Source of the DNA: a virus
Length of the DNA: 25,364 nucleotides
Virus record (IMG/VR): IMGVR_UViG_3300023171_000009
Coordinates: 73,113-98,476 of that record
Direction: 5' to 3' (one strand)
Under the pieces are notes generated by a model that searched no databases, was not told where the DNA came from, and saw only the letters and a list, made by a program, of their open reading frames with translations. Both the position numbers and the translations under genes were made by a program. Numbering within the stretch: the first letter of the stretch is position 1; the number at the start of each line of letters is the position of its first letter. This document shows, in pieces, positions 1,322 to 25,360 of this stretch.

Positions 1322-1334
1322 TGCAATGATTTCA
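1322..1334 (-). repeat. Dispersed 13-bp motif (TGAAATCATTGCA)
   Basis: Intergenic, 6 nt upstream of the ATG at 1315. Confidence 0.85.
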
Positions 1335-1345
1335 CTGTTGCTTTC

Positions 1346-2530
1346 TTATTCAGTTATAAGGTAAGCAACAGTGCTGGTATCAGTGTTAGAAGAAGAAGTA
1401 ATGGTAAAGCTAGTCGCGGCAGTTCTAGCGGATATGCGAAGCCAGCCGGGGGTGCCTCCATCAACCTGTGACGTAACTTGAATATTGCTGTTTGCAGTAG
1501 TGGTAGTATCTGAAATCGTAACCGTGCCTCCTACAAGGACAGCCCGCCCTTGTTTAATCCTAGCGATATTACTTCCGTTAGCTCCACTACCTACTTTTAA
1601 GTTACCGCTAAGTGTTGCGTCTCCTACGGTGATAGGTGCATCTGTTCCAGTAGAAGTCTTAAATACTAAGGTAGTATCACTATTAGCGGTAATACGGCTT
1701 CGGCCAGTCCACCCTATGGTTCCGTCAGCGCCCGCAAAGATGTTATTTGTGATTCCCATATTACCAGTAGAACCAATACTACCAACTTCCGCCCAAGCTC
1801 CTCCGTTTGTCCTAGTGGAAAAGGTAAGGGCAGCGTTAGGGGCAGTCGTTCCGTTACTGGTTTTAACATACATTCTGAAGTCTGTGACCTGACTGCCTGC
1901 GGTGCTGTTAGTTTTCCATCCGCTACCGGTCCATTGAATGGCGGGCGAAAATTGACTAACTGTTGAAGTGGACGCCGTGGTATTGTTTAACAACACTCCT
2001 GAAGTAGGAACGTCGGCAGTGTTGCTGAAGTTATGGGATACCGCCCCTGTAGTTGTGTCAGCAGTAAAGCTAGGCAAACCCGCAAATGCTGACGCCGCGT
2101 TAAATTGAACTTGAGTATCAGCGCCTCCGGGTGTTCCAGAACCGCCACCGCTGCCGGAAGCGTTAATAGTCTGGTTAGGCCAACTTCCGGTTATGGTTAC
2201 GTTAGTTCCCGCTACAAGTGCGGGCGTTGCCGTGCCTGTTCCACCATTTGCCTTGCTTAACGGAGCCGACAGTGTAGGCGTTCCGCTAATGGTAGGGCTA
2301 TTTAACGTATTGCTATTTGCAAGCGCGGTTAAGTCAGCGTCTAAAGGCTGATACAGGCTATCGGTTTGCAGCAAGTTCAACCAAACAGAACGTTCTGGAG
2401 TAGTTAGAGTTTCTTCATACAGCAAAGATAAGATAGCTTCACTTGCTATTCCAGTAGTTCGGTCAGCCAGTGCGGAAGTTAAGGGTGAGAAAATTGCACA
2501 AATTGCAATGAATGTGGTAAGAAATTTCAT
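1346..2530 (-). CDS. Signal-peptide-bearing Gly/Ser/Thr-rich tail-fibre-like protein
   Basis: Signal peptide MKFLTTFIAICAIFSPLTSALA (AxA). Fibre-type motifs PLSKANGGTG and PGGADTQVQFN. C-terminal domain GRAVLVGGTVTI...ARTAATSFTITSSSNTDTSTVAYLI is typical of phage fibre tips. Confidence 0.7.
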   Translation of the reverse strand: MKFLTTFIAICAIFSPLTSALADRTTGIASEAILSLLYEETLTTPERSVWLNLLQTDSLYQPLDADLTALANSNTLNSPTISGTPTLSAPLSKANGGTGTATPALVAGTNVTITGSWPNQTINASGSGGGSGTPGGADTQVQFNAASAFAGLPSFTADTTTGAVSHNFSNTADVPTSGVLLNNTTASTSTVSQFSPAIQWTGSGWKTNSTAGSQVTDFRMYVKTSNGTTAPNAALTFSTRTNGGAWAEVGSIGSTGNMGITNNIFAGADGTIGWTGRSRITANSDTTLVFKTSTGTDAPITVGDATLSGNLKVGSGANGSNIARIKQGRAVLVGGTVTISDTTTTANSNIQVTSQVDGGTPGWLRISARTAATSFTITSSSNTDTSTVAYLITE

Positions 2531-2570
2531 AGGTGAGTTAATAAACGATTTTTGTCAGTAAGTGGGTATA

Positions 2571-3698
2571 TTAATTGAAGTCCCAAGTATCGGTTGCTAC
2601 TTTCTTGATACAGAAGGTTCCGTTAGTGGTTACCGTTGTAGATGTGGAGCCTCCTTCAACCGTAGCTCCAGAAAGAGTAATAGTTCCGCCTGAACTAGTT
2701 CTGCGAATGTATATTTCTGTTCCAATAGGGAACGCTACAGAAGCATTAGTCGGAACAACAATAGTGGTGGCACTAGCGTTTGTGCAACGAATATAAGCAT
2801 TAGCATCACTTAAAATAAGTGTGCGACTAGTTGTCGTTTCAGTTACAACAGAACCAAGAGTTCCAGTAGCCGTGGAGTTGATCGTTTGGTTAGGCCAAGT
2901 TCCACTAATTGTGATATTAGTTCCAGCTACAAGGGCAGGTGTCGCGGTGCCGGTTCCGCCTCCACTTACTGGAGTAATACCCGTATGCGTTGTGCGGTCG
3001 CGCAAAGCGGCATCAGTGCTGTTTGCAGTTGCACCAGCGGCAATTCCGTTAAGCTTAGTAAAGAAAGCGGGGTTTAGCAAACCTGCATTAGTCCCATCCG
3101 CTAACGGAATAGTAAAACCTGTTCCATTAGTGTTGGAAACAACATTATTAGTGCTTGAGGCCGTTAGTGTCAAATTGGAGATTACTCCTGTAGGAGTTCC
3201 CCAGCTTACCGCGCTTCCGTTGGTAGTTAGAAACTTACCGGACTGCCCCGCCTGATTCGGAAAGCTTGATGCACCTACTGGAATCCAGTTAAAGCCACCT
3301 ACTCCATCAGAAGTCCATACACCCGCAACCGCGCTTGAGTTAGCAAGGGCAACCAGATTGGCGGGAATAGTAGATGGATTTAGCGCGCTCCATGGATCAT
3401 TGCCGTAATGGTTAGCCCGATTGGCCGGGTCGAAAGCCAGCTTGCTCATGGGAATAGCAGCGTTAGCCGCGATATTCTCATTGAATATGAAACCGGGCGC
3501 AATTGCGCTAGTTCCGGGAGTGCCTGTGGATTTAAGAACCTGTCCGGCAGAAGAACTAGGCAAAGGAATGATAGCGGGAACGGAACTAGTTCCTCCTATA
3601 ACAGAAGTCAGCCCTCGAATATCTCCGGTTTCGCCGTAAGATATACTCCCTAAAAGTGAAATCGTTGCACCGATTAAAAGTGCCAGTTTGTTTTTCAT
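2571..3698 (-). CDS. Signal-peptide-bearing tail-fibre-like protein (true start probably 3698, not 3875)
   Basis: The ATG at 3698 gives the signal peptide MKNKLALLIGATISLLGSISYG and removes the overlap with 3727-3993. Fibre motifs GQSGKFLTTNGSAVSW, KLNGIAAGATANSTDAALRDRTTHTG and the C-terminal domain SRTLILSDANAYIRCTN...AFPIG...KKVATDTW. Confidence 0.75.
   Translation of the reverse strand: MKNKLALLIGATISLLGSISYGETGDIRGLTSVIGGTSSVPAIIPLPSSSAGQVLKSTGTPGTSAIAPGFIFNENIAANAAIPMSKLAFDPANRANHYGNDPWSALNPSTIPANLVALANSSAVAGVWTSDGVGGFNWIPVGASSFPNQAGQSGKFLTTNGSAVSWGTPTGVISNLTLTASSTNNVVSNTNGTGFTIPLADGTNAGLLNPAFFTKLNGIAAGATANSTDAALRDRTTHTGITPVSGGGTGTATPALVAGTNITISGTWPNQTINSTATGTLGSVVTETTTSRTLILSDANAYIRCTNASATTIVVPTNASVAFPIGTEIYIRRTSSGGTITLSGATVEGGSTSTTVTTNGTFCIKKVATDTWDFN
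3657..3669 (+). repeat. Dispersed 13-bp motif (TGAAATCGTTGCA)
   Basis: Exact copy inside the signal-peptide codons (encodes ATIS). Confidence 0.9.
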
Positions 3699-3726
3699 GA
3701 TAAATAAAATAAGATAGACTGTCGTG

Positions 3727-3993
3727 TTAGAACGAATTGGCAAAACCGTTAGAAACAACCCATTTATGAAGCCCGACTTTGTAATAAAAACGTCCGGTGT
3801 CGTCAGTATCATCAAAGAAAGCCCCAACCCCTCCCCTTGTGTCACCGGGTGTTGTTGGCGGGCTATCGATTTCAACAGAGCTTGTTATTCCAAGGGATGT
3901 TGTAATTTGTGCTTTTTCTGACGTAGTTAAAGGAATGCCGGTAATGAATTTACTTATGGCAACTCCTAACGTCACATTAGGTATTTCAGGCAT
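3727..3993 (-). CDS. Small virion-associated/fibre-adaptor-like protein
   Basis: Fits the operon packing. N-terminal helical LTTSEKAQITTSLG segment, plus a PTTPGDTRGGVG...DTGRFYYKVG..W module of the kind seen in phage fibres. Confidence 0.55.
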   Translation of the reverse strand: MPEIPNVTLGVAISKFITGIPLTTSEKAQITTSLGITSSVEIDSPPTTPGDTRGGVGAFFDDTDDTGRFYYKVGLHKWVVSNGFANSF

Positions 3994-4033
3994 GATATAA
4001 GGTAAGTTATGACTTAATAAAGCACGGTAATGA

Positions 4034-4426
4034 TTAAGGAGCCAAAGGTTGCCAAGGAGCGCCTAAAAGAACGGAGACAGGGCCAGTAGTTACGTCAAAT
4101 GACGTTAACGCAATTGGATGCATAATATTGGCTGCTAGACTTAGAGAAGTAACGACACTCCCAGCGGCGTTCCTTACTTCTTTTCCTACTTGAAAAACGC
4201 AATTCGCTAATACCATTGCACTACTTGAGTAGACATATAAGGTAGGCACTTTTGCAGCCAATGGGTTAGCTGTAGGATCACGATACTTCTCAGTAGCAAC
4301 AAGGTTTACTTGACCACAACCACCAGTTGCGGCGGCGAGTTGCATTCTAGTGATATTTTCATCCCCCTTTCCCGGAAAAAGTGTTCTAGGGAAATCAGCA
4401 GGATTAACATAATCGGTGACAGGCAT
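4034..4426 (-). CDS. Hypothetical protein (small, beta-rich; possibly a head-spike-base-like structural protein)
   Basis: Clean ORF within the operon. The C-terminal TLYVYSS...LSLAANIMHPIALTSFDV only loosely resembles spike-base jelly-roll proteins. Confidence 0.55.
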   Translation of the reverse strand: MPVTDYVNPADFPRTLFPGKGDENITRMQLAAATGGCGQVNLVATEKYRDPTANPLAAKVPTLYVYSSSAMVLANCVFQVGKEVRNAAGSVVTSLSLAANIMHPIALTSFDVTTGPVSVLLGAPWQPLAP

Positions 4427-4457
4427 ATAATTATAAGTTTATGTGTGAGTTAAGAAG

Positions 4458-4470
4458 TGAAATTATTGCA
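4458..4470 (+). repeat. Dispersed 13-bp motif variant (TGAAATTATTGCA)
   Basis: Intergenic, immediately past the GT32 stop codon. Confidence 0.7.
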
Positions 4471-4471
4471 A

Positions 4472-5254
4472 TTAACAGTCCCAAGGTATGTGCCTTGTTT
4501 TATCAGCCCAATCCATTTTATTTAAATGATGGCATACCGATTTCTTCCACGGCTGCCCCATATCATGCACTTGCCATAAAAAATAATATGGCGGCAGAGT
4601 AATTACCCTTCCTTCCAATTGCTTTGCACTCGCTTTAAGATAACGACTAATAGCCAAAGGTCCAGCGAAAGCTAGGACTTTTTCGTTAACGTTCCTTAGT
4701 GTATTTTGAATTAAGTCAACTAATAAGGGTGCTCCGGCTTTACCCCACATAACCGTATTTGCTATAGGATAGCCCCCTAACGAGGCATTTGGACAATGTT
4801 CACGGCTAAGAATCAATTCATACCGGCTAAAATCAGTAGCTATTGGAAATGCCTCCGTGTCTTTCAACGTGCTAGGAAAGGATGAATTCCGGCTATACTT
4901 GAAATTGGTAAAAGTGTGCTCAACCTGCGCTCCTTCCCACAATGAACGTATAGGTTTTAATGGTATACAGTCTAAATCAATATACCCGCCTCCGAATGCA
5001 TGGAGTATTAACAAACGTGAAAAGTCGCATTTTTTTATAATGCTAATTTTTTTATCTTGGCCTAATCCGATATCACAAAAGAAACGAAAATACTTAGGAT
5101 AAACTCTGCCGATAAACGTAAGTATTGCAACTTCATCCCAAACCTTTACTTGATATTCGGGGTTCATTTCCTGCCATTTTCTAGGCACGTCCTGAAGTTC
5201 TGAAGGTGCGGAAGACAGCCCTTGCCACCACATAAAATGTAAAATCTTTTCCAT
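4472..5254 (-). CDS. Glycosyltransferase family 32 (OCH1/capsular polysaccharide synthesis-like, DXD motif)
   Basis: KILHFMWW, W..MNPEYQVKVWDE and KCDFSRLLILHAFGGGYIDLD match the GT32 Gly_transf_sug signature (D..R..IL...GG.Y.D.D). Downstream AGP motif also present. Confidence 0.9.
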   Translation of the reverse strand: MEKILHFMWWQGLSSAPSELQDVPRKWQEMNPEYQVKVWDEVAILTFIGRVYPKYFRFFCDIGLGQDKKISIIKKCDFSRLLILHAFGGGYIDLDCIPLKPIRSLWEGAQVEHTFTNFKYSRNSSFPSTLKDTEAFPIATDFSRYELILSREHCPNASLGGYPIANTVMWGKAGAPLLVDLIQNTLRNVNEKVLAFAGPLAISRYLKASAKQLEGRVITLPPYYFLWQVHDMGQPWKKSVCHHLNKMDWADKTRHIPWDC

Positions 5255-5259
5255 AATAG

Positions 5260-5739
5260 TTATCTAAGATTTACAAGTATGTCAGTGAATAGGCTATAAG
5301 GATCATCTAACTCTTCGTAATCCATAGCAGCGCTATAACTAGGCAAGGGCGGTCTAGGTTCCGGTGGTTCTTCATCTATAACAGGTGTTATTTTACTACG
5401 GCGATAGGCGTCAAGAGAAGCTAGAAGCTTTACAGTAGGAACTCGCGTTGGATTCTTTTTTACAGGAACTTTATTAGCTGTTTCCACGTAAGCTAAGTTA
5501 TCCCATAAGGCATACTCTCTGGTTGTGGAAGCCGTGGACGTTGGCGCTTTAGGAAATACCACAATATCCCCACCGTCAAAAGTAAGCTTGCTAAGGATAT
5601 ACGGATTTTTATTAGCCACTATTGTAATAATATCACTATCTGACCTTCCATAATAGTTATGACAAACCTGCCGCAACGTCTCGCCTTGCGATGCGATGTA
5701 GGTTGTTGCAACGATTGCAAAATTTCCTAACGTAGACAT
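5260..5739 (-). CDS. gpX: P2 gpX-like (LysM-related) tail protein with a C-terminal extension
   Basis: YIASQGETLRQVCHNYYG...VANKNP...GDIVVFP and the family's terminal LWD motif at residues 78-80, followed by 79 extra residues. Confidence 0.8.
   Translation of the reverse strand: MSTLGNFAIVATTYIASQGETLRQVCHNYYGRSDSDIITIVANKNPYILSKLTFDGGDIVVFPKAPTSTASTTREYALWDNLAYVETANKVPVKKNPTRVPTVKLLASLDAYRRSKITPVIDEEPPEPRPPLPSYSAAMDYEELDDPYSLFTDILVNLR
5707..5719 (-). repeat. Dispersed 13-bp motif variant (TGCAATCGTTGCA)
   Basis: At the 5' end of the gpX-like gene (encodes AIVA). Confidence 0.8.
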
Positions 5740-5759
5740 AAATAGGGGTTTATAAAAGG

Positions 5760-8700
5760 TTAGATAGATTTTGTAGTTACGCGAAGCTGGCGCACGTATA
5801 AACGATTAGCAGGGCTTCCCGCTCCTTCAATTTGAATGCGTGTAGTGTAGTCAGGAGCTACAGCATGTGCTTTAAGCAAGTTAGCAGGACCGGACGAACC
5901 GGCCACGGCGGGCAATACCCATTCCGCTTCATACCAGCCATCTTCTAAAGCCCGTTCTAGCTTAAGCTCCATAGGACGCCATTCCGTAACCGCTACTCCA
6001 CTAGCGTAAAGCGGTGTTCCTCCGCTATCCCTTACATGAGATAACATCTTAGGTGTTGCAGTAGCTCCGGCTTGCTTTCTGTATTCAAAAACACACGTTG
6101 CACCAAAGAAATCCGTTATATTGATAAGGTCGCGGGCATTGAACTTTTTGCTAATGTAATTACCCGTGTCCAACATCGTCCCCTTAACAACCTGCGGGCG
6201 GGAATAAATAATAGGGGACAAGTTAGGGTTAGTGATAACATTCGCGGTTAGAATAACGTCCAGAATGATATCACCGGTAATACGCAAGGGCAGCGTTAGA
6301 GGGGTTTCTTCAGATACTTCATAGACAACACCCGTAGAAGTAGGAGTGAACCGGAACTTTACATCGCATTCCGCATTAGGGCGTAAGACTGTGGCTCTTG
6401 CTACCAAATCACTTATGTTTGTAGCGGAAACGTTACCCATGGGCACCGTAAAGGAGCTTGTGGTAAATTTCGCAGCGATAAGCCTAAACGTTAGATCCTG
6501 TTTAGGGTGCGGTGTCCAAGTGGAAGCATTAGAGGAAGACAACATTTCCCCTCCTTGATATGGCTGACCTGTAACAAATCCAGCAATACCACCGTTTAAA
6601 GCAGGGGTCATATATTCCCCAATACCAGCAATACAAATGCTATGATCGGGATCATCTGTCATTACAACAATAGCATATTCTTTTCCTCCGATGACGTGCG
6701 CTTCGATTTCAAAATTAATACGTGTCCAAACATTAAGCGGTATGCCGTTGGTATCCACGGTGAGGCTAGACATATCAAATATGCCTTCAGCAAATACCTC
6801 TTGGTTAGGAAACCCTACCGTAGTTTCTCTTAACTGGACATACACAATTTGCGGACCGCTTCCACGTTTACAGAATTTAAGATCGACGCCAGTTAAGATA
6901 CGATCTTCATCAAGAGTAAAGGTTTCCGCTAAAGGATCACAACGCTTTTTCTTTTTGCGCCTTCCGGAACGTGTAGCCTGACGAACAATAACAGGATATG
7001 ATATCTGGCTCATGCCAATAAATGAGCAATCCCCATAACTGCTATTGCCGATAAACTCCACTGCTTTTTCTCCGGTAGGAATACCGGCAGGTATAGAAAA
7101 GCTACCTGTAATTTTACCGTTAGCGTCAGCAGGACTTGTGCTTGTGAAGGGCAGCGCTCCAGCAATAATGTTGCTAAAGACTATGCCGTCAAAACGAATC
7201 TCCACTAGCTGTTCTCCGGGGCCAAACCCTTCCACAAGGAACGTGATAGGTTGTGGCCTTATGGTATCCCCTGCATTTACTTGAGTTGTTACAACACTGT
7301 TAGCAACAGTCAGGTTATTTATTGAAGGTGTCGCATTCTGGTCTTGGTCTACGGTAACCCGCAAAAAGTTAGATATAATCTGCGTGTTCCAGTTACTTGA
7401 GCTAACAATCCAGTTGTCGCTGGCAGGTGAAATCGTTGCACGCGCCGGAATAGGTTCAAACGCTTGATAAGGGTTAATCTTGCTGCAAGCGGTTACTTTG
7501 CTTTGATCAATAACAATCTCATCGGTGTAAGGCAGTAGATGATGCTTTAAGCTATTAGTGTAGTAGTTAGGAACTTCTGCGGTCCCTGAAATAGGTAGCG
7601 TAAGCAAACCGTCAATAATCGCCATGTCATTAGGCAGAAGGTTCTCGCGCAAATCGTTATCAAAAAACGGGTCGACAAACTGTCCGCGCCTATCCGCAGG
7701 AACCCGCGCCGTCAGATCATTACGCAATCGCGATTGTGCCACTAAATCATATAAATCATCGACACGATTAACAAGCTTCTGTTGATCGTCAAAGTTGATA
7801 GGAACAGTGCGAATGTCCTTAACTTCGGGATCGGTATACCAATTATACACTATAAGAGCCAGCTTTGTATGCGTGTCAGGAATAGGAGGCGCTGCGGGAT
7901 TAATCAAGGACGGCCTTCCCTTGATTACATGGAACGATCCTTCACGGTCGATAGTGATAGCATCAACCCTTTGTAGCTTGTAGGTGTAGCTTACGTAGAC
8001 GATGGAAGGTGTTGTGCTGGTGTTAGGAACTAAGCCGGTTAAGGTTATAGTTTTAAAGTCCTGTGCAACGATGTTACCACGTCCGTTAGTAAGCAAATTC
8101 TCACGAACCGCAACCTTTACCGTATAGCTTCCGGATGTTGGCTCTGTTGCTCCGCTTCCTGACGGTGACCAGTCTATTTTACCATCAACCAATAAATAGT
8201 CTCTTGGCGATTGATATACTGTAGCGCCCTGCTTGACTTCAGTTACATACTCAACACTGGAGTTTACAAGAGAATCCTGCCCACCAGTGGAGCCTTTTGT
8301 AAGGGTTTCAGTCAATTCCACAAGCCCGTTGATAGCCTGCAAAGTCGCTTTAGGGAATCTGTTAAGTGTCAGAATATACTGACCGCCATTAGGCACGTAA
8401 GTTTCTGATTCAGTTTCGCTAGTAGCGACATCGTAATTAATATCAATAGCAAGGGGCGTGTCGATAGTTCGGCCTACGTTATAGCCCCTTACATGAACCG
8501 TTCCTTGAGAAATCGTAAAGATGTATTGATCACTGGCGTGTTGCGCATTCGCGGCCTCAAATCGTGAATACCTAACTTTAAAACCATCAACTGCATAGTT
8601 TCCGTGCGCTGTGTAGTCATACCCTGCCACTGTGTCAATGATCGCGGTGACTGCGGGCGGCAAATCTTTGATAATAATGTTACCGTTATCTATGTCATAG

Positions 8701-9233: not shown

Positions 9234-9254
9234 AAGATAAGTAAAAACTAAAAG

Positions 9255-10538
9255 TTAAAGGCTAACAACGCGTGTCATTATGTGGGCGATAGCAGAAGAA
9301 TGAACAATACCCATCGAATCCTCTAAAACAAGGGGCGTGCCTTCTGCGGAAATAGCATTAATGGGAATGTTTTCTATGCCGTTTGCAATCGTTGCAGCGG
9401 CTCCACCTACGAATATTCCCATTTGGTTAATAGGCGTTGCATCTGCTATATCATCGGCTTGGACAACACTATTAAAAATAACGGCTCCAGTAGGTTCCGC
9501 TGTAATGTAATAACGATTTGATGATAAATCAGTATAGACGGCAGGCGCGCTAGACTTCCTAAGATGACTTTGCCTTATTATGGCACCTGTGGCTATATCA
9601 AATACGTCCCAAACAAGCGCTTTTTCTGTGGCGTAAATCATTGTTGCGCATCTGCTAGTATCGTTGCTCCAAAGTTTTACCGCATTAACCACCGCGCCTT
9701 CTAAACTACCACTAGCTAAAGTCTCAACTCTGGAACTGACATTTAACACTCTAACAGTTCCGGAAATATCAATCTCTTCATTTACGTGTTGATGGCCACA
9801 TAGAACTAAATCCCATGTTCCGTCCAATAAATGGGCCAATTCCGCTAACCAACCCGGACGGCCTGACACTGGTGGATAATGAACAGCCAATACCTTCCAA
9901 GGAGAGCTTGAAGCATTAGCCGCTGCTTTCAACGCTAGGGATTGCACACTCTCAATGCCTGTTCCATCCGGCTCTGTATCTACTCCCAAGCTATTCTTAC
10001 CGGCATGATAAGAACTAAAATGAACCGGAGGGACTTTTCCAGAAATTGGAGTGTCGTAATCGATTGTCCTTGAATAATAACGAGCGTTGCTAAGATAAGT
10101 AAACTTAGCGAGCATATTTGCTAGCCCTAAGTCATCTTGATCAAGATTTCCGTAAGCAGGAAAGAGTTTTTGAGTAGAAAACCACGGGTTAAACGCGGCT
10201 AACGCCGCATTTATGTTACTAGTTGTAGGGCTTAAACTAACTAGGTTGCCAGCATAAATAACGCTTTTAGCTACAGCAGACGTAAACTTAGCTACAATTT
10301 GATTTTGTCCCGTTCCAGTTAAGCCTGCATCAGAAGTATAGCCGATACTGGCTTTAGGTTGATCCATAACCTTAGAAGCATAACCTTTATTGAATACTCG
10401 CTTACGAAGAAACCTTGAAGCAAGGGCGGTTGAATCCGCAGTCAGGGGCGCAACACTGGAGCTAAATTCAAAGTGTATCTCAGAATCCAGTAAAGCTTTT
10501 AAGAGTGCGGCTTTGCCCGCTTTTGGAAAGGTTACCAT
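9255..10538 (-). CDS. Baseplate-associated protein (type found upstream of DUF4815 genes) with an internal degenerate metallophosphoesterase domain
   Basis: The N-terminus (AGKAALLKAL...TALASRFLRK) and C-terminus (RYYITAEPT...INQMGIFVG...GTPLVLE) resemble the small conserved structural protein. Residues ~62-328 carry calcineurin-like motifs SDAG, AGN, PAYGNLD, WKVLAVHYPP and LVLCGHQH. Confidence 0.75.
   Translation of the reverse strand: MVTFPKAGKAALLKALLDSEIHFEFSSSVAPLTADSTALASRFLRKRVFNKGYASKVMDQPKASIGYTSDAGLTGTGQNQIVAKFTSAVAKSVIYAGNLVSLSPTTSNINAALAAFNPWFSTQKLFPAYGNLDQDDLGLANMLAKFTYLSNARYYSRTIDYDTPISGKVPPVHFSSYHAGKNSLGVDTEPDGTGIESVQSLALKAAANASSSPWKVLAVHYPPVSGRPGWLAELAHLLDGTWDLVLCGHQHVNEEIDISGTVRVLNVSSRVETLASGSLEGAVVNAVKLWSNDTSRCATMIYATEKALVWDVFDIATGAIIRQSHLRKSSAPAVYTDLSSNRYYITAEPTGAVIFNSVVQADDIADATPINQMGIFVGGAAATIANGIENIPINAISAEGTPLVLEDSMGIVHSSAIAHIMTRVVSL
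9384..9396 (+). repeat. Dispersed 13-bp motif variant (TGCAATCGTTGCA)
   Basis: Intragenic (encodes ATIA). Confidence 0.8.
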
Positions 10539-10583
10539 AGGTGTTGTATATTAGCAGTTTTTACTAACTAGGCCAGGAAATAT

Positions 10584-10596
10584 TGCAACGATTTCA
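10584..10596 (-). repeat. Dispersed 13-bp motif (TGAAATCGTTGCA)
   Basis: Exact copy whose TGA is the gpI stop codon. Confidence 0.9.
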
Positions 10597-11385
10597 CTCT
10601 ACCGATCTAGCAGATACATAATCAATGGTTACTCCGTCAATATCGGTTATTTCGTCAGTGTTATTGTCAATAATAGGCCCTGTGGTGATTCCGTAGTCTT
10701 TATATGCAAATTTACTAAGAGTCAGCCCGCTTCCTCCGATAGCATAACTGTTTAAATTAGGGCTATATACCGCTATCCATAAGTCTTTATTGTGTGCGCT
10801 AGGTCTTCCGGAAAAATGCCCTAAAAGTTGCCTTCCTAGAGTGCCGTTTTGAATACCTTTCTTTTTCGATAGCACCATTCTACGGATATCAGTATCAAAT
10901 CCGTTATAAATACGCCTAAAACGACAACGTAAAGGTTTTATAAACTTGAGCGCTTTTTCAAGTCTAACCAAGGTATCTTGTTCAAGCCTAGTTACAGGCC
11001 CTAGACCTATTTGAAATTCGGAAAAATGGATAGTCTGCCATTCATGTTCCCATACTCTAACGCCTATAAATCCAAACATTTCACAAATACGAATGATAGC
11101 CGCAACAGTGCCGCGATGCTCCTTTAAATAGATAGAATTTTCAAGGATTACGTCCATATCATCAAAAGCTTCCAACAAGGGCAATTGTCCTCTTTGCTGA
11201 AGAATCCATATACGCCAGTCCGTGGGGATTTCAGTCTCCCCTACGGTATTCATATCAGACACTATTGCCTGAAGAATGCCGCTGTAAGGCACTAGCTTTA
11301 ACAAGTCCTGCTCTAGCTTGGTAGCATTAGGAGGCAGGAGCGTATAAAGAGGGTCGATTTCCCTAGTTGGTTCAGGTAATGGCAT
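10594..11385 (-). CDS. gpI: P2 gpI-like baseplate/tail protein (likely start 11385)
   Basis: LLPPNATKLEQDL, RGTVAAI and KPLRCRFRRIYNGFD motifs, directly after gpJ. The MPLPE start overlaps the end of gpJ by a few codons. Confidence 0.85.
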   Translation of the reverse strand: MPLPEPTREIDPLYTLLPPNATKLEQDLLKLVPYSGILQAIVSDMNTVGETEIPTDWRIWILQQRGQLPLLEAFDDMDVILENSIYLKEHRGTVAAIIRICEMFGFIGVRVWEHEWQTIHFSEFQIGLGPVTRLEQDTLVRLEKALKFIKPLRCRFRRIYNGFDTDIRRMVLSKKKGIQNGTLGRQLLGHFSGRPSAHNKDLWIAVYSPNLNSYAIGGSGLTLSKFAYKDYGITTGPIIDNNTDEITDIDGVTIDYVSARSVE

Positions 11386-12562
11386 TGTAAGCTGGTTGTA
11401 AAACTTCAAATATCAAGAACGCGATTTCATCTTCCGGAAGAACGACGTTAGTTGTTTGATTTACTATCAGGTTTCCTATGCCTAACCATGTAGCGAATCC
11501 TACGGTAGTAGGTTGTATAATACCTTCCCTTGCCTCTTTATTTAAGTCCGCTGCGATATCAAAAGCGGAGCGCTTATACCTTACGCAAGAATCATAGTAA
11601 TATCGGTATACACGGTCATAAATGCTAGTTTTTTCCGCGTCTGACAAACGATAATCGTCAACTTTATCAAATCCTCCAAACGTAAGCACAAGATTATGCA
11701 AGGACGGGAACTGAAATGGGCTTACCTTTATACTGGCTAAAGGTGCTTTGATTATAACGTCATGGACTCCGTCAATCGCCAGCGTTTTGATTATCCATCC
11801 TAAAGTTATGTCCTGTCCGAGAGCTAGTTGATTGTCAAAAGCATCAGTTATAATTGCGGATAACTGATTGAACACATCAATTGGCGTAGTCTGCTTAAGT
11901 ATGATAGTCGCTTGGATTGTTACTAGAACCGGCCTCGCGGCTTCCGCCTGAATAAGATCGCTAACTACCTTAACATTGGGTTGTTGTAGTGCAAAGTTAA
12001 CCTTTTCCAATAGATCAATGGAAGGAACTCCGGTTGATTCATAACTTAATACGGCAACGGACACCCTTCCTCCCATATTATATCCATCAGGGAAATCAGG
12101 GCTATAAATATTAACGTCTCTAACTCTTGCGTCCGCTTTTAACGCTATTGCGCGATAATAAGCTTCCGAACCCGCACCATTTCTCCCTGCAATAGTTGCA
12201 AAAAGCCTATCACGTAGTCTATCATCTGGCTCATATACTGCCGGAATAGGAGGCTCTGAATCAGGATCACCAGAATCCACTAAAACGCGGGTAACCCCTT
12301 CTGACAACGCTAGATGCTCCAAGTCTCCTTCCGCAGCAAATGCAATAAGCCGTGAGCGCGCTACTTTATTGATATACAAACGAAGTATCAATTCGCGCCA
12401 AGAACCATGTCTTAGCACTTTTGTTACCGGATCACTTTTAAGAAAGTAAGCGTAAGTAGGATCAAGTTCTTTAAAAAACTCAATGTCCCTTGTTTCAATA
12501 ACAGCTAGATCCGGCTCTTCAAGGACGGTAGGCGCTGGAATAGTTGAGAAATCTAAAGCCAT
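11372..12562 (-). CDS. gpJ: P2 gpJ-like baseplate wedge protein with a ~100-aa C-terminal extension
   Basis: DFSTIPAPTVLE, SDPVTKVL, AFAAEGDLEHLA, EPDDRLRDR and AGSEAYYRAIALKADARVRDV motifs. Confidence 0.92.
   Translation of the reverse strand: MALDFSTIPAPTVLEEPDLAVIETRDIEFFKELDPTYAYFLKSDPVTKVLRHGSWRELILRLYINKVARSRLIAFAAEGDLEHLALSEGVTRVLVDSGDPDSEPPIPAVYEPDDRLRDRLFATIAGRNGAGSEAYYRAIALKADARVRDVNIYSPDFPDGYNMGGRVSVAVLSYESTGVPSIDLLEKVNFALQQPNVKVVSDLIQAEAARPVLVTIQATIILKQTTPIDVFNQLSAIITDAFDNQLALGQDITLGWIIKTLAIDGVHDVIIKAPLASIKVSPFQFPSLHNLVLTFGGFDKVDDYRLSDAEKTSIYDRVYRYYYDSCVRYKRSAFDIAADLNKEAREGIIQPTTVGFATWLGIGNLIVNQTTNVVLPEDEIAFLIFEVLQPAYNAIT
12188..12200 (+). repeat. Dispersed 13-bp motif variant (TGCAATAGTTGCA)
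   Basis: Inside gpJ (encodes ATIA). Confidence 0.65.
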
Positions 12563-16532: not shown

Positions 16533-16535
16533 CTA

Positions 16536-17180
16536 TTAAATAATACGGCGATTTACTTGGGAACTCCAAAAGCCCGCTAACAATGATAGAGCACTCTGTG
16601 GTATAGCAAGGGCAGAATAATCGTTTACTTCTCCGGGGGTTGAAAGCCAATGTGCAATGATTTCAAAACATACATGAACCATCGAAGGTCTGTTAGGGTT
16701 TAGTTCGTCAAAACCGGCAGTGTATTTAACCGCTAGTTGTGATTTAATAGTGTAAGTAGTGCTAACCCCATTTTCGTCGAGCCAAAGCAGGCTTGCGCTT
16801 GCCCTTCTATTGTCGGGCCTACTAAGCCTATATTTAGCGGGCAAAATAGACGTAGTGCCATCTAGCACTTCATCGATGCTGATAATAGGGCCGTTAGGTA
16901 TAGCTATACCGTTTCTGGTTTGATCGCTGTCCACCCATTTTCCGTTAATCCCGTAAGGGTCGCAACTGTAGCGAGGCTTATCGAAATAACTGATATACTG
17001 CGTAGGCAGAATAACACAACGGGCGGTCTGTCCTGCTAGTTGGACAGCCGCCCTTAACATGCGTTTCAGTTTATTATCAATCTTAGGACTGACAATTACT
17101 AAATCCGATTTGAGTTGTGCTAATGGATAGAAAGCCTCAAACGCCGTCTCCAGTGGAGGGGTTAAAAGCTCTGTAGTCAT
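16536..17180 (-). CDS. Head-tail connector (HK97 gp6 / phiE125 gp8-like)
   Basis: PLAQLKSDL.I....DNKLKRMLRAAVQ, P.GPIISIDEV, VKYTAGF, IIAHW and IPQSALSLL motifs; synteny after the capsid gene. Confidence 0.85.
   Translation of the reverse strand: MTTELLTPPLETAFEAFYPLAQLKSDLVIVSPKIDNKLKRMLRAAVQLAGQTARCVILPTQYISYFDKPRYSCDPYGINGKWVDSDQTRNGIAIPNGPIISIDEVLDGTTSILPAKYRLSRPDNRRASASLLWLDENGVSTTYTIKSQLAVKYTAGFDELNPNRPSMVHVCFEIIAHWLSTPGEVNDYSALAIPQSALSLLAGFWSSQVNRRII
16653..16665 (-). repeat. Dispersed 13-bp motif (TGAAATCATTGCA)
   Basis: Inside the connector gene (encodes EIIA). Confidence 0.85.
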
Positions 17181-17204
17181 AATGGTTAGTCATGCAAACA
17201 ACTT

Positions 17205-17217
17205 TGAAATCGTTGCA
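17205..17217 (+). repeat. Dispersed 13-bp motif (TGAAATCGTTGCA)
   Basis: Exact copy, intergenic, upstream of the connector gene. Confidence 0.9.
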
Positions 17218-17221
17218 ATTC

Positions 17222-17602: not shown

Positions 17603-17644
17603 ATGGTTTTGTAGGTATTTAGATTTTGTTCAAAAGGTTATTAT

Positions 17645-17693
17645 AAAAAGGCTGCTAGGTATAGAGGTTTTAAGTCCATACCTAACAGCCTTT
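17645..17693 (-). terminator. Rho-independent terminator after the major capsid gene
   Basis: The minus strand reads AAAGGCTGTTAGGTAT-loop-ATACCTAGCAGCCTTT (16-bp stem, one U.G pair), with the 3' arm running into TTTTTAT. Confidence 0.8.
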
Positions 17694-17738
17694 GAACGAC
17701 ACCGGAAAGCAACCCCTAACTCTCCGATGTCAAGTATA

Positions 17739-18788: not shown

Positions 18789-18823
18789 ATAAATGGAATG
18801 TGAAATGTTTGTTGTGTTAGTTT

Positions 18824-18836
18824 TGAAATCGTTGCA
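18824..18836 (+). repeat. Dispersed 13-bp motif (TGAAATCGTTGCA)
   Basis: Exact copy, intergenic, upstream of the major capsid gene. Confidence 0.9.
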
Positions 18837-18842
18837 AAGTTA

Positions 18843-20078: not shown

Positions 20079-20108
20079 GTAATGTGTTTTATCAATAGTG
20101 GTTAGTAG

Positions 20109-20465
20109 TTAAGCCTTTACTCTTGGCATTTTGGTTCCAGAACGGCGATGATTTCGAACCATTCCTTTTGCCCCCGTCTTATCGTTTATGCGGGGTTTAC
20201 GGTCCTCCGGCACAAAATAACGATTACCTCTCTTATCCCTTACCCATTTACCTTTAGGTTCTTTCGTAGCTGCTACCTTATTAATACTAGCAGGTTTAAT
20301 AGCGCCGTCAAGCTGGATATCGGTAGGAGTTGTCTTGTTAGAGCGTTTTACGACGTGGAAAGCCAATCGATTAGCCGGACGATCTACAAGACTAACGTGA
20401 GTTACGTCCACGCTTTCCAACAATGAAACATTGCGCACAATCGTTTTCTTTTTTGGTGAAATCAT
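20109..20465 (-). CDS. Small basic protein carrying the prohead-protease-associated VSLVDRPAN motif
   Basis: LESVDVTHVSLVDRPANRLAFHVVK matches the segment found in XkdF/HK97-type protease or scaffold polypeptides. Confidence 0.7.
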   Translation of the reverse strand: MISPKKKTIVRNVSLLESVDVTHVSLVDRPANRLAFHVVKRSNKTTPTDIQLDGAIKPASINKVAATKEPKGKWVRDKRGNRYFVPEDRKPRINDKTGAKGMVRNHRRSGTKMPRVKA

Positions 20466-20469
20466 TGCA
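20457..20469 (+). repeat. Dispersed 13-bp motif (TGAAATCATTGCA)
   Basis: Overlaps the ATG of the 20109-20465 ORF. Confidence 0.85.
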
Positions 20470-20484
20470 AAGTTTAAGTGTTAG

Positions 20485-21084: not shown

Positions 21085-21092
21085 CTTTAGCT

Positions 21093-21120
21093 ATACTAAC
21101 ACGACAAGGACGGCTATCAA
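21093..21120 (-). promoter_or_regulatory. Putative sigma70-type promoter for the head operon
   Basis: TTGATA (21120-21115), a 16-nt spacer ending in TGT (extended -10 TGn), then TAGTAT (21098-21093), 8 nt upstream of the protease ATG. Confidence 0.45.
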
Positions 21121-21140
21121 GCTATATTTGTAAAATTATA

Positions 21141-23198
21141 CTATGCAACGATTTCACTTCTTACCTTGGAGTCTCTTGGTATGATTTGGACTTCATTTGG
21201 CGGGCTAGGAGCGCCGCTTAAATCTATATAAAACAACCCGATATTTATTCTGCTATTCTGTAACCCGGCCCTTGTCGCAAATGCTCTTACTTCCGTCGTT
21301 GTGTTGATCGTTATAGGGCCTGTATATAGTGTTGAAGCAGTAGTAGGATCGGTTCCGTTTAGGGTGTAGTAAATAGCACTAGCTCCTGTGCTGTCCAAGG
21401 TGACCACAACAGGCTCCTCATAGGTGTAAGGTTCTGGAGTAAACACTGGCACATAGGCTGCGGAGGCTGTGCCACCACTTCCTTCAATGGCTCCTTTAGT
21501 GGTGAATACACTTCTTGGATTGTTGTTACCGTCGAAAGGAATAAGGCTTCTATTTGTAAGGGCGGTGACCGCTGCCGGAGAAAGAACATAGTAATCATGC
21601 TCTATAGGATCACGGTATTTAACAGTCCCTAGCGTGTGCCCTTCACCGGGTGCAAAACCTGTAGTTCTTCTGTTATGATTTCCCATCCATTTGATGCCGG
21701 GAACAAGTTCAGGGAAGTTTTCATTAGTAACAACTACATCGCCCAATGTCTTCTTATTTAGAGTCATCCCCATTATGTTGTAAGCGAATGAACTATCTTC
21801 TGACAATTCAAAACCATTAGGGTCACCCGTGTCTTTAGCCGTTCTGCTTTCAAGCTTAACGCCGATAACTTGGTTTCCGTAAGTATTATTCCAATGCACG
21901 CAACCCCTCATCCTGAAGAAATTGCTCTCCTTACCATCGCTAGCAAGTTTAAAGAACCTATTGTTTATGAGGGCATGCCTAATTATTTTCAGCGTGTCTG
22001 TCATGAATAGGCATTGCACTGCGGCATTATCCACAATGTTATTAACCCACATGCAGTTTTCTTTATCAACGATGCTGAATTGAATAGCGTCTCCGTGAAC
22101 ACCGTCCAAGGGGCGTTGATCTGTATAACGGCAATCCCGCACCCATGGCACATTCATCAAGTCTCCAGTGATGTTGTTAACATCCATTCCTGACATATAG
22201 TGCGTTGCGGTGCATTCTGCTATGTTACCCCAATCACGTATTCTAGCCCTATAACGGTTAGTCTTTGTGATGTAAGCAATACCGCAACTTTGCCCTTTAA
22301 GTGAGGACACCTGCCCTTCGATTCGACCCTTGCCAAAAACGTCAGAACCGTCAATCCACATTATGACTTTATCCCCGGTAGAGGCGCCTGCGAACGGTGA
22401 AGGATCGGTAGTTCTATCGATAGTAAGCTCTCTTAAACGTATTAATCGAAAGCTAGAGCGAACTCCGGTGGCTCCGATTTTTTCAGTTAAGACAACATTT
22501 TCGCGGTTACATCCGGGAGCCAAAGCCAAGGTTAGCCATCTGCTTTTCGCGGTGTAAGGCGCTCCTTCCATCGGCACTTGATAATGCCCATCCCTAATCA
22601 AAATGCACCCATTATCAAGCTGGCCGTTATAGCCTTTCTTAAAGCAATCGCTTAACGTCGTATAGGGCTTTGCTTCGCTTCCATCGGCAATTGCAGGGTT
22701 AGCAGTTTCATCAAGCCATAGTTTAGGCTTGGAATATGAATTAACAATAGAGGCGTTAGAATAAAGTATTAAGCAAGATTCACTGGTAGGAGGACCGCCA
22801 GTTGTTTTGAAGTTATCTTGCGCAATGAAGGGCGGTCCATCTTCCGGGTAGGCTATAACTCTAACCTGAACGGCTCTATTTTCTGTAGTAGGCAGCAATC
22901 GACATATGTATTCAAAATACCCTGTGTCAGGGTTTTGTTCCATGCTAGTAACATCTATAGGAGTGCCGTTGTCCGCTATGAATCTAACTTTTTTAATGCC
23001 TGTGCTGTAATGCATGTGTCCAGTAGGATGCACGGCAAAAAAACCTATTATTACAGGCGCTTCATAACTTTGGCATGACGGAGTGCTCCATCGTCCCATT
23101 GGCCTATATTTAGAACCCCACGCGCCCGGAACGCCTACCGATTCAGGTTGTGGTATAAGAGGCCAATTAAGATCATTGCCGGGGATTAAGTCTATCAT
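21141..23198 (-). CDS. Putative polysaccharide-binding/depolymerase protein: N-terminal Ig-like domain, right-handed beta-helix, C-terminal CHB_HEX_C/Fn3-associated domain
   Basis: [11 protein letters not shown]...I.IRDG.Y beta-helix cap, HGDAIQF motif and Asn-rich coils. C-terminal PVFTP...[29 protein letters not shown]. Confidence 0.75.
21144..21156 (-). repeat. Dispersed 13-bp motif (TGAAATCGTTGCA)
   Basis: Exact copy encoding the last residues (EIVA) before the stop; just upstream of the putative head-operon promoter. Confidence 0.9.
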
Positions 23199-25318
23199 AC
23201 TAAAGTTGTGTAAGGGTTATTTCCTTTTCTATATACATCCATTATGTCTTCATCCGAGAACCACGCCCCGCTAATCATAGCAAATTGCAGAGTGCCATAA
23301 AGACCGGAAGTCCCTGTAGAACTTTCAGCTTTAGAAGCCATTTTAGCACGCGTTGTTTCAATCGGCTCCGGAATAGTTACTGCTCCGGAAGTGTATACTA
23401 ACTCTCCATCAATATATGCGCGTATTCTAGCACCATCCCAAGTCATCGCTAAGAAGTGCCATAAGCCATCATTACAAACTTTAGTGCTTTCATAGTTTAC
23501 TAGCGTTATACCAGTATCACTATAAAGTCTAAACAAGGGGCATCTACCGTCTGAATTACCTGTCCGGATAGCGGCCCCTTTAGTTTTAGAATCATGCCCT
23601 ACGTGCATGAAGACAGCGAAAGCCTTATTAACGGTCCATTTAGCCCATACGCCTATCGTAAATTGAGAGAGGTTTGTGATTTCGCCTAGCGAGCTAGTAT
23701 TCCCGTTGCTGCCCGAATATGCGCTACCCGCAGTCGCACCAGAACCAAAACTAGTCGCAGGATCGGGTGAGCCTAGAATGCCAGTTATTCCATGCGTATA
23801 TGCCCCTGAATATCCGCCAGATTCGTGAGAACCTGCTAGATCGATCATTGCGGCTCCGGTGTCGCTAAGAGGGAAAAACTGTCTAACGTCTGGTTTAACC
23901 TGTAATATATAGTCTATATAGGTGTATAGGGTTTCATTGGTTGTAACTATTGCAATCGTTGCACTCCATTCCGATCCGCAAACCGTGGCGCTGGCATCAT
24001 TCGAATTTATAGAGCGTATTCTAACCCAATGTGTTGTAGAACCCGTCCTTCCTGTAACAACGTAAGTATCAATAGAAGCAGGAATTATATCCTCTAAATC
24101 CTCCCACGTTTGTTTATTATCAGTAGATATGCTGATTTGATATCCGCCATTTATAGGAAGGATAGAAGGCGGGTTGAAATTAACTCTGAACTCAGTATCG
24201 CTTACCACCGTTGCACTAAGTGAAGACGGCGGAATGGTAGGGGGAGTATAAATAACTTGAGGCTGCTGAACTATGGATAGGCCAAAATCGTTCCACCCAA
24301 CAATTCTCATTAGATAGCGCCTGTTAGACTTAAATCCACTAATAGTCTTAAATAGGTCTAGTCCTTTACCAGCAAGGGCGGCACTTGTCGCGACGGTTGT
24401 CCACGTTTCACCCTCATCAAGACTTACTTGATAGTAGAAACCGCGTTCCTTGCCGCTTGTATCTGTTGCGTAAAAATCGATATCCTCACCAATCCCGTTT
24501 TCAATAACGTGCCCTCCAAAACTTCGGGCAGTGACATCAAAAGTGTTTGCAGCCACTTGCAAAATCTGAATAGAAGTTGCTGGACCGTTAGTATCTCGGG
24601 AGCCGTTAACAGTCCCGCCGGTAACGTGACCTACTCCGGCACCAATCTGTCTAACATTCCAGATATAGGCAGCAAAAGACGAGTAAGGCAGTCCATCCGC
24701 CATAAAAACAGACACATCAGCCCCTCCCAACAAACGAATAACCTTACCTAATCCTGCATTGCTAGCATCAAGCGTAACAGAAGTTCCACTAACATTAATG
24801 ACTTCAATGGCTGTAGCACCTGCAATACCTTGGGAGCCAGTGTCCCCCTTGTCTCCTTTATCGCCTTTCAATCCTTGCGGCCCTTGAATGCCCTGCGCTC
24901 CTGTAGGCCCTGCAACTCCCTGCGGTCCAGTATTGCCAGTGTTACCTTTAGCTCCCGTAGCGCCAACCGGTCCTTGTGGTCCTTGTGGTCCTGCTGGACC
25001 AACCGGTCCTTGTGGTCCAGTAGCGCCTGTTAATCCTCTAGCACCGGTTGCCCCTGTAGGTCCGGCAGGTCCAGTATTACCTGTTGTCCCCTTATCTCCC
25101 TTTGCACCAGTAGCACCGATAGGGCCTTGTGGACCAACGGGGCCTTGCAATCCGCCGTCTTCTACAATAGTAGCTAGAGCATCCCTAACGTCTTGAAGGT
25201 CGGCATTACTTGGAACATCTAGGGTTGTCTGAAAAGTTTCTTTTTCGTCCGGACTCAATGTCTCTTTAAATAACAAAGAAGATACGGCTTCATCAAGTTT
25301 TCCGTTATTGCGGCTCAT
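23195..25318 (-). CDS. Collagen-like fibre with FN3 repeats and a C-terminal LamG/concanavalin-A-like lectin domain
   Basis: 38 uninterrupted G-X-Y triplets. Two FN3-like segments (YQVSLD.G.TW...YLMRIVGWN and [10 protein letters not shown]...WVRIRSIN). LamG segment FTIGVWAK...[21 protein letters not shown]. Confidence 0.85.
23951..23963 (+). repeat. Dispersed 13-bp motif variant (TGCAATCGTTGCA)
   Basis: In the FN3-LamG linker (encodes ATIA). Confidence 0.8.
24812..25153 (-). repeat. Collagen triple-helix repeat (38 G-X-Y triplets)
   Basis: Residues 56-169, from GLQ-GPV-GPQ to GIA-GAT. Confidence 0.95.
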
Positions 25319-25347
25319 ATGTTTAAATTGTATAAGGGTTAGTATTT

Positions 25348-25360
25348 TGAAATCGTTGCA
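25348..25360 (+). repeat. Dispersed 13-bp motif (TGAAATCGTTGCA)
   Basis: Exact copy upstream of the collagen fibre gene. Confidence 0.9.

Follow-up and report, generated by a model that had tools for sequence, protein, structure and literature searches.

The viral contig examined here, IMG/VR record IMGVR_UViG_3300023171_000009 (98,476 bp, referred to below as this phage), carries a short quasi-palindromic word, TGAAATCGTTGCA, that recurs about once per 1.3 kb along its entire length and at intervals that are considerably more even than expected by chance. The stretch presented above, which we call the window, comprises 25,364 nt (bases 73113-98476 of the contig) and holds one part of this array. 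In our judgment it is probable that the array is a genome-wide set of predicted docking sites for a dimeric, ParB/KorB-like protein encoded by the phage itself, the most likely such protein being one of 404 amino acids (aa) whose gene follows that for RuvC. A first-pass annotation of the window, made from the sequence alone, had proposed regularly spaced binding of a sequence-specific dimeric protein to the phage chromosome. Enrichment of the word, its over-regular spacing, its independence of orientation, its maintenance at the DNA level in several reading frames and the occurrence of perfect 14-bp palindromes in related phages all speak for that proposal, and it is from these properties that we infer the binding itself.

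A search that allowed up to two mismatches to TGAAATCGTTGCA found 18 sites in the window, as compared to an expectation of 0.49 and a maximum of four in dinucleotide-preserving shuffles of the same DNA. Seventeen of these sites had been listed in the first-pass annotation and were all recovered with the same sequence, coordinate and strand, as were the classes into which they fall (eight exact copies, four of TGAAATCATTGCA, three of TGCAATCGTTGCA and one each of TGAAATTATTGCA and TGCAATAGTTGCA) and their distribution over both strands (11 plus, 6 minus); the eighteenth, TAACATCGTTGCA, is a copy with two mismatches at 8064-8076 on the minus strand that the earlier list did not contain. Over the whole contig there are 75 copies at the same stringency, of which 42 are exact, and when 8-, 10- and 12-mers are counted over the genome, the leading one in each case derives from this word. 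The flanks had been described as mostly unrelated, which needs to be corrected, since the sequence logo extends to AAAAA-(G/T)-TGAAATCGTTGCA-A-W-W, with A-rich flanks that lie on both sides and on the same strand for sites in either orientation. Although about 94% of the called genes on the contig are encoded by the minus strand, the orientation of the sites is random (33 plus, 42 minus; runs test z 0.25) and forms no domains along the genome.

The regular spacing noted in the first-pass annotation is borne out. Gaps in the window measure 552 to 2807 bp, in agreement with the 0.55-2.8 kb reported earlier, and have a coefficient of variation (CV) of 0.42. Genome-wide the CV is 0.52, as compared to a mean of 1.08 and a minimum of 0.74 in 20,000 simulations (P<5e-5) under a boundary-aware null that preserves the observed split between sites at gene boundaries and sites in gene interiors; the largest gap is 2,924 bp, versus a mean largest gap of about 6,900 bp under the same null. 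Many of the sites are found at the ends of genes, 31 of the 75 starting between -3 and +40 nt from a stop codon where 4.5 would be expected, and in seven cases, including the window site at 10584, the TGA of the site itself serves as the stop codon of the upstream gene. These seven stops, together with the gene end at 21144 that reads E-I-V-A, indicate that the array shapes the ends of genes. Another 26 sites are found in gene interiors, well away from the boundaries, where they occupy three or more reading frames and both strands and encode peptides such as E-I-V-A (13 cases), the K-S-L-Q type (six) and A-T-I-S or A-T-I-A (eight). The check by codon-preserving shuffling that had been suggested earlier leaves this enrichment intact, with 26 interior copies in the genome versus 8.2 +/- 2.4 (maximum 15 in 300 shuffles) and 10 versus 2.35 in the window. 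The use of three or more frames and the excess over codon shuffles imply that the word is maintained as DNA, and with its presence on both strands they rule out an artefact of coding or codon usage. The two longest genes with interior sites hold two sites each, as would be expected if large gaps are selected against, and both the density and the evenness of the sites look selected. An RNA hairpin or terminator is ruled out as the basis of the repeat, since the 13-mer can fold into no more than a mismatched 5-bp stem and the window has terminator-like sites at the chance level.

As judged by the major capsid protein, the cultured relatives of this phage are only distant ones (34-38% identity), and yet a sister array is present in all six capsid-related genomes that were compared, in the 14-bp form TGCA-N6-TGCA. 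The words are TGCAAACGTTTGCA in JP1 (Agrobacterium), TGCAGTTAATTGCA in VH2_2019 (Vibrio; VH2 below), TGCAAGCGTTTGCA in FBPa45 (Pseudomonas), TGCAACYGGTTGCA in HJ05 (Aeromonas), TGCAATCAATTGCA in DLP5 (Stenotrophomonas) and TGCARTTGATTGCA in RcZahn (Rhodobacter). The palindrome has the highest 12-mer count in five of the six; in RcZahn, which has 24 sites, it ranks second in 12-mer counts and is the top dyad. Two further relatives were located through the candidate protein rather than the capsid: Rhizobium phage L338C (KF614509.1), with 52 copies of TGCAAC-NN-GTTGCA and 14 more in a 13-bp form, and RHph_Y1_11, with 30 copies, some of which have TGAAAT half-sites; reversed-pattern controls gave zero matches in both. 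Sister arrays are thus carried by eight cultured relatives with hosts in Agrobacterium, Vibrio, Pseudomonas, Rhodobacter, Aeromonas, Stenotrophomonas and Rhizobium, at 24-66 copies per genome of 80-110 kb, and the spacing is even in all seven relatives that were tested (gap CV 0.41-0.67, all P<=0.03). This phage itself has almost no TGCA-N6-TGCA (one match) and no TGCAA-N4-TTGCA, using instead the 13-bp form, which is one base shorter than the 14-bp palindrome and asymmetric. The motif is thus no private feature of one phage but a variant form of an array that a large group of 80-110-kb phages share.

The inner bases of the word differ between lineages and the central ones follow the phylogeny of the phages, being CG in the clade of this phage, JP1, FBPa45 and HJ05 and TA, CA or TG in the clade of VH2, RcZahn and DLP5. 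Several site positions are shared across the seven genomes (the six capsid-related ones and this phage), namely the 3' end of RuvC (6/7), the junction upstream of the protease gene (5/7, including that of window site 21144) and the position upstream of an AAA gene (4/7). That the word shifts at every site of a lineage while positions persist is what would be expected if the sites co-evolve with a single reader. Metagenomic relatives extend the picture: contig L182 has the word TGCACACGTGTGCA, the diverged contig L183 (ERZ28612946) has four copies of GTGTTAC-AA-GTAACAC in 12.9 kb, one of them directly upstream of a homolog of the candidate reader, and locus L209 has two 13-bp sites that are identical to variants of this phage. 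The L183 word lacks TGCA, and so not every member of the family has the outer TGCA. With regard to close relatives that share the same word, a 17-mer scan of IMG/VR yielded six single chance matches, the capsid-based IMG/VR loci are all at most 37% identical to this phage, and a protein word-index search returned only the query.

About 16 gene families are common to all seven genomes. They include the portal, terminase, capsid and protease proteins, RecA, RuvC, a resolvase, a Cas4-like exonuclease, an SF2 helicase, primase, PolA, DnaB, an AAA ATPase, a gp32-like single-strand binding protein and two proteins of no assigned function. One of the latter two is the 404-aa protein (G000:C1:35328-36542, minus strand, outside the window), which is encoded directly after RuvC in this phage and whose family occurs in every phage that bears the array. 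The order of RuvC followed by the homolog was found in every genome and metagenomic locus examined and is direct except in DLP5, where one gene intervenes; in most of these loci a site lies at the end of RuvC or in the gap before the homolog, and in this phage one lies just upstream of the 404-aa gene. Bacillus phage B83, Clostridium phage P21 and Streptomyces phage Daubenski, which have a related capsid, have neither a homolog nor such an array. The protein, for which an exhaustive HMMER search gave 179 homolog clusters, has an acidic N-terminal part of low complexity, a conserved helical core (approximately residues 150-345) and a basic tail rich in Ala, Lys and Pro; the N-terminal CTPase domain of ParB proteins is missing from it. 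Its putative recognition helix varies together with the word: YRTA(Q/M)YW is found in this phage, RHph_Y1_11 and L209, all of which have TGAAAT half-sites, helices of the YRKAMYL type pair with TGCA(A/G)(C/T) words, and LPTAYHW in L183 pairs with a TGTTAC half-site.

In its predicted structure (AlphaFold2, pLDDT 88, 37-sequence alignment) the candidate has a helical domain with a helix-turn-helix (HTH) that weakly resembles the DNA-binding domains of ParB, KorB, SopB and Noc. The best PDB rows in Foldseek were the P1 ParB-DNA, Noc-NBS and SopB-DNA complexes, at E values of 0.5-4, and in VIA-align the DNA-binding domains of ParB, SopB, KorB, VirB and Spo0J account for eight of the top 13 rows at Z 4.8-5.9 (KorB: 8qa8, Z 5.7; 1r71, Z 5.0), which is under the trust line of about 8, or about 13 for helical proteins. 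Neighbors in Atlas and BFVD were DUF3102 and ParB-HTH proteins, likewise below the trust lines. With all fold scores on that side of the lines, the assignment to a ParB-type fold is a lead rather than a result, and this is the first of several points that weigh against the proposed reader or against the proposal as a whole. The RuBisCO chaperone Raf1 scores as high as the ParB-type domains in VIA-align, and searches of Pfam and of PDB sequences gave no significant match to the candidate. The pairing between helix and word involves a handful of lineages, counted without phylogenetic correction, and JP1 and FBPa45 have divergent helices yet ordinary TGCAA words. L209 has a homolog but only two sites in 20 kb, and DLP5 has no site beside its homolog gene. 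The protein belongs to the core of this phage group, so that its co-occurrence with the array is inseparable from shared descent. The strongly conserved asymmetry of the site, the A-rich flanks that lie on both of its sides on one strand and the length of 13 bp are odd for a symmetric dimer, and in this phage no association of the sites with promoters of the sigma-70 type or with terminators was found. Finally, there are other proteins that might bind the sites, in particular a winged-HTH protein (G000:C1:52444-52725) and a MerR-like HTH family encoded after the SF2 helicase and kept in four of the relatives.

Several further genes were considered as readers and set aside. The gene at 156-950 resembles Mu-F rather than ParB, that at 42095-43231 looks like a gp32-type single-strand binding protein, and those at 38348-38719 and 37501-38364 match PHROGs annotated as Holliday junction resolvase and exonuclease, respectively, the latter with a weaker match to a CRISPR/Cas-associated family; the gene at 39901-40233 has no DNA-binding features recognizable by eye. 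An open reading frame (ORF) that spans at most 172 aa and is flanked by the genes for the SF2 helicase and RecA (G000:C1:40233-40759; L061:7233-7760, minus strand; outside the window) occupies the spot of the MerR-like HTH gene of four relatives, and no similarity to the MerR-like family, Pfam or PHROGs was detected for it.

If the proposed reading is correct, the array of this phage would be one lineage's version of a system conserved among phages of 80-110 kb, the majority of which transcribe mainly one strand, in which the inner bases drift between lineages while the spacing and several gene-junction positions stay. The dyad of this phage would have lost one central base, and one of its half-sites would have become TGAAA. 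The 404-aa protein, as the most likely reader, would bind the sites as a dimer and might work as KorB does on IncP plasmids or Noc on the Bacillus chromosome, where dispersed operators nucleate one protein along a whole replicon. Sites beside promoters would tune transcription; most sites lack a promoter neighbor. The even spacing, with no gap above 2.9 kb, suggests a role that is chromosome-wide, such as organizing, silencing, insulating or protecting the phage DNA, for example against resection. DLP5 is reported to be temperate and maintained as a phagemid (PMC5834331), which makes silencing or partition-like roles conceivable. A bolder version, which we hold to be possible but doubtful, is that in a large clade of 80-110-kb phages, most of which have hardly been studied, a dyad specific to the lineage marks the chromosome at intervals of 1-4 kb. 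Its reader would be a ParB-fold protein without the lost CTPase clamp but with newly gained tails, acidic and histone-like, and the array would then be a phage "chromatin" or self-marking system in which control of promoters is a side function and the sites nucleate compaction, insulation or shielding, for instance as roadblocks that hold resection by nucleases to less than 3 kb.

It is unlikely, though it deserves serious consideration, that the sites are operators of a different phage regulator and serve the control of transcription only, through repression or activation of promoters or as stoperator-like roadblocks, with the ParB-fold protein having no part in it. Speaking for such control is L338C, where 22 copies of the promoter family TTGACAAAGGAT-N11-GTTAGATT all point in the direction of transcription and where, for 10 of the 22, a palindrome starts at a fixed offset of 21-26 nt upstream of the -35 element (0.08 expected); this placement is the sole functional hint that we have. 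About 55 of the 66 palindromes of the same genome have no link to a promoter, however, and most sites in general are far from any recognizable one. Five to seven sites adjoin a -10-like hexamer in each of JP1, VH2 and this phage, and the crowding of sites just past stop codons in this phage also speaks for operators; against this, promoter and terminator scans of the window were at the chance level, 26 sites are deep in genes (with two of them midway in a single 1157-aa gene), and orientation is random with respect to transcription, which is not so for stoperators. Within this phage there is no excess of -35/-10 pairs downstream of the sites, TATAAT occurs near them at the chance rate (6 vs 5) and the regions upstream of the genes show no enrichment of the Bacteroidota -7 motif TAnnTTTG; a sigma-54 promoter was dismissed by eye on account of a misfit in spacing and in the GG/GC pattern. 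A temperate phagemid such as DLP5 would benefit from silencing across its whole genome, and there are regulators to choose from: the MerR-like family is found at the same gene position in DLP5, FBPa45, HJ05 and VH2, and this phage has an HTH_36 protein. But the MerR-like family was undetected in this phage, reached only E=9e-4 in JP1 and was not significant in RcZahn, HTH_17 is absent from this phage, which disposes of it as a reader here, and none of the relatives has a homolog of the winged-HTH gene.

In JP1, FBPa45 and HJ05 the words have the operator shape of the LacI family, TGNAANCGNTTNCA, and the core of the JP1 word, GCAAACGTTTGC, appears in the literature as a PurR/MalR box. One could imagine that a host factor of the LacI/GalR family (with PurR-, CcpA- or FruR-like operators) is recruited or titrated, with replicating phage DNA acting as a sponge, and it fits this idea that the LacI-type HTH (PF00356) was absent from the six phage genomes in which it was sought (this phage, JP1, VH2, FBPa45, RcZahn and HJ05), which also rejects such an HTH as a phage-encoded reader. 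We nevertheless consider a host factor highly improbable: the word tracks the phylogeny of the phages rather than the host, phages of gamma-proteobacterial hosts differ in their words even where the hosts have one PurR box in common, site positions are kept between phages of unrelated hosts, two central bases are free in L338C, and the 13-bp site of this phage lacks the hinge-helix CpG at the center of an even dyad. The presence of an N6_Mtase (4335-5141) and of GIY-YIG domains in the genome, the resemblance of the TGCA...TGCA shape to type I and type IIB targets, and the asymmetry, exact conservation and extended flanks of the 13-mer, which would suit a monomeric enzyme, raise the further prospect of an enzyme target, either of a methyltransferase with bipartite TGCA-N5/6-TGCA specificity or of a nicking or homing endonuclease that marks or nicks the genome at intervals, as in T5 and the nicked phages of the tf type. 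That prospect seems slim. Neither gene is common to the relatives with arrays, the inner bases are conserved within each phage, unlike those of a bipartite restriction-modification target, an enzyme needs neither even spacing nor conserved junction positions, and double-strand cutting at the palindrome would break the genome. The slimmest chance belongs to a cis-acting signal for the core replication and recombination machinery with no dedicated architectural protein, be it a Chi-like stop for an exonuclease, a priming or helicase-loading signal, or a tag for uptake or packaging. Okazaki fragments have lengths similar to the 1.3-4 kb spacing of the sites, the candidate gene and the best-conserved site are within the module of RecA, resolvase, Cas4-like exonuclease and RuvC, and even coverage would cap the DNA lost from any break. 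Yet the sites show no strand polarity or switch of orientation along the genome as Chi, KOPS and primase sites do, known signals of this kind have 3-8 nt and not 13-20, and the sites are dyads in all relatives. For a word used throughout a host genome, such as an uptake sequence, no support came from a 16-mer scan of 185,579 species (GTDB, one genome each; the host of this phage is not identified), in which the matches listed were single, isolated chance ones with a scattered taxonomy and none of 80 loci inspected had more than one core motif. The relatives across seven host genera each carry a word of their own.

Of the comparators named in the first-pass annotation none had been thought to fit well, but closer ones exist in the KorB operators of IncP plasmids, the Noc-binding sites, the dispersed SopB centromeres of phage N15 and the 17-bp dyads of Cluster O mycobacteriophages. 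The Cluster O dyad, TGTTCGG-N3-CCGAACA, is present in more than 30 copies per genome and its function is not known (Cresawn et al. 2015, PMC4351075). About a third of the copies are intragenic, many are at gene junctions and most are not at promoters; a dimeric binder was predicted, the asymmetric center gives the repeats no meaningful direction, and their density is higher at one end of the genome (PMC4351075). This phage also has tens of copies of a short dyad, intergenic and intragenic, neutral in orientation and mostly away from promoters, and its array falls into the same class of phage-wide dyad repeats, a descriptive class without known mechanism. The differences are that the Cluster O word is unrelated and of another length, that the hosts are actinobacteria and that PMC4351075 is silent on even spacing and proposes no reader, whereas the array described here spans many phage genera with lineage-specific words. 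Cluster O is the closest descriptive match, and the closest mechanistic analogues are KorB with its operator OB, Noc with its binding site (NBS) and dispersed SopB sites.

The operator OB is a 13-bp palindrome, TTTAGCSGCTAAA, with 12 dispersed copies on the IncP plasmid RK2, some at the -35 element, some tens to hundreds of base pairs away and some far from promoters, all of which are read by one HTH protein of the ParB superfamily. L338C likewise has both a promoter-adjacent and a promoter-distant class of sites. KorB differs in having an N-terminal CTPase domain and in acting with IncC (ParA) and KorA, whereas the ParB_N CTPase domain (PF02195) had no match at E<=1 in the six-frame translation of the 98-kb genome of this phage; no ParA-like domain was found among 25 of the 34 Pfam families matched in it. 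The phages also carry 25-75 sites as compared to 12, evenly spaced and often intragenic, and are only predicted to be bound. Noc and SopB are similar in that palindromes of 14-16 bp along a replicon (the Noc site ATTTCCCGGGAAAT; parS and SopB sites, including those of phage N15) nucleate a ParB-fold protein, and the L182 word TGCACACGTGTGCA has the central CACGTG of the parS consensus. They differ in needing a CTP-binding N-terminal domain in order to spread or to recruit the membrane or ParA, where the phage protein has an acidic N-terminal part and a basic tail instead, and the density of the phage sites is 10-100 times higher. The stoperators of Cluster A (13-17 bp) share with the array a length of about 13 bp, tens of copies that lie genome-wide and mostly in short intergenic gaps, and a single reader encoded by the phage; they are, however, asymmetric and point with transcription, the sites of the relatives being true palindromes and those of this phage being divided between the strands of a genome transcribed mostly from one, and no integrase or immunity repressor was identified. 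The likeness to LacI/GalR operators (cre, PurR box) seen in JP1, FBPa45 and HJ05 is limited by the even length (14-16 bp) and central CpG of those operators, which contrast with the odd 13-mer of this phage and the non-CG centers of other relatives. Chi and KOPS are polar, and the array has neither orientation bias nor domain structure.

Searches of the full-text literature with eight forms of the words and six phage names, and by term within the RcZahn paper, returned passages with no description of the array; the exact words occur there only as unrelated primers or as PurR/MalR boxes, and in the passages of the R. capsulatus phage paper matched by term, repeats are not mentioned. A good understanding of dispersed, even arrays of operators exists for only a few systems, on plasmids and chromosomes (KorB, Noc, MatP, SlmA), and in phages such arrays are mainly known as unexplained repeats (Cluster O) or as stoperators. 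The recurrence of the same architecture in cultured phages of seven host genera means that the question of function can be tested in tractable hosts. The words that co-evolve by lineage and a concrete candidate reader provide matched pairs of protein and site for studies of how specificity drifts, in a natural series in which the dyad spacing also goes from 14 to 13 bp. Should the array organize or protect phage DNA, it would bear on replication compartments, on the evasion of defense systems and on the recoding of genomes for engineering, and the bolder "chromatin" version, if true, would amount to a new class of virus-encoded chromosome-organizing system.

The window corresponds to the virion module of a tailed phage. 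Its genes, all on the minus strand, include those for the major capsid protein, a protease of the XkdF type, several baseplate proteins (gp25, J, V and P2-I types), fiber or hydrolase proteins and a protein with DUF4815. The leftmost site, TGAAATCATTGCA at 1322-1334(-), is intergenic, 11 nt past the upstream stop and 6 nt ahead of the next start, and is followed by an exact copy at 3657-3669(+), 68 codons from the start of the longest ORF, 2571-3875(-), for which the true start is uncertain. Site TGAAATTATTGCA at 4458-4470(+) is again intergenic (1 nt past a stop, 31 nt ahead of the next start), and TGCAATCGTTGCA at 5707-5719(-) is six codons past the longest-ORF start of 5260-5739(-). The gene for the DUF4815 protein of 1157 aa contains both an exact copy at 7428-7440(+), deep within it at codon 597 and encoding A-T-I-S, and the weak site at 8064-8076. 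Another TGCAATCGTTGCA, at 9384-9396(+), is inside gene 9255-10538(-); the exact copy at 10584-10596(-) provides, with its TGA at 10594-10596, the stop codon of gene 10594-11409(-); and TGCAATAGTTGCA at 12188-12200(+) is inside the baseplate J-like gene. Next are three interior sites, namely TGAAATCATTGCA at 13488-13500(-) in 13005-14135(-), encoding E-I-I-A, an exact copy at 14828-14840(+) in 14132-15055(-), encoding A-T-I-S, and TGAAATCATTGCA at 16653-16665(-) in 16536-17180(-). Two exact intergenic copies follow, at 17205-17217(+), 4 nt past a stop and 24 nt ahead of the next start, and at 18824-18836(+), 6 nt past a stop and 35 nt before the major capsid gene begins. The protease gene has TGAAATCATTGCA at its downstream junction (20457-20469, plus strand) and, just upstream of it, the exact copy at 21144-21156(-), which encodes the last four residues (E-I-V-A) of gene 21141-23198(-). 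Of the last two sites, TGCAATCGTTGCA at 23951-23963(+) is inside the collagen/LamG gene 23195-25318(-), and an exact copy at 25348-25360(+) is 29 nt upstream of the start of that gene.

Positions 21141-25318 of the window, between the portal/Mu-F block and the protease gene, are taken up by two large genes, one of which has collagen repeats together with fn3 and LamG domains and the other a chitobiase-C/Fn3-associated domain; relatives carry other accessory genes at this position, DLP5 for example a ParB-nuclease fusion. Over the window (1-25364) there is also a second word, CAAGG(A/G)C(A/G)G, with 17 copies on the plus strand and one on the minus strand, a strong strand polarity by which it is nearly always opposite the genes. 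Streptomyces phage Daubenski (MN444876.1) has a dyad of its own, GTCCG-N3-CGGAC, in 15 copies, as well as 10 copies of the word CCCCGAAGGGCC; neither has any relation to the TGCA family, and they may represent terminators or a further family of sites.

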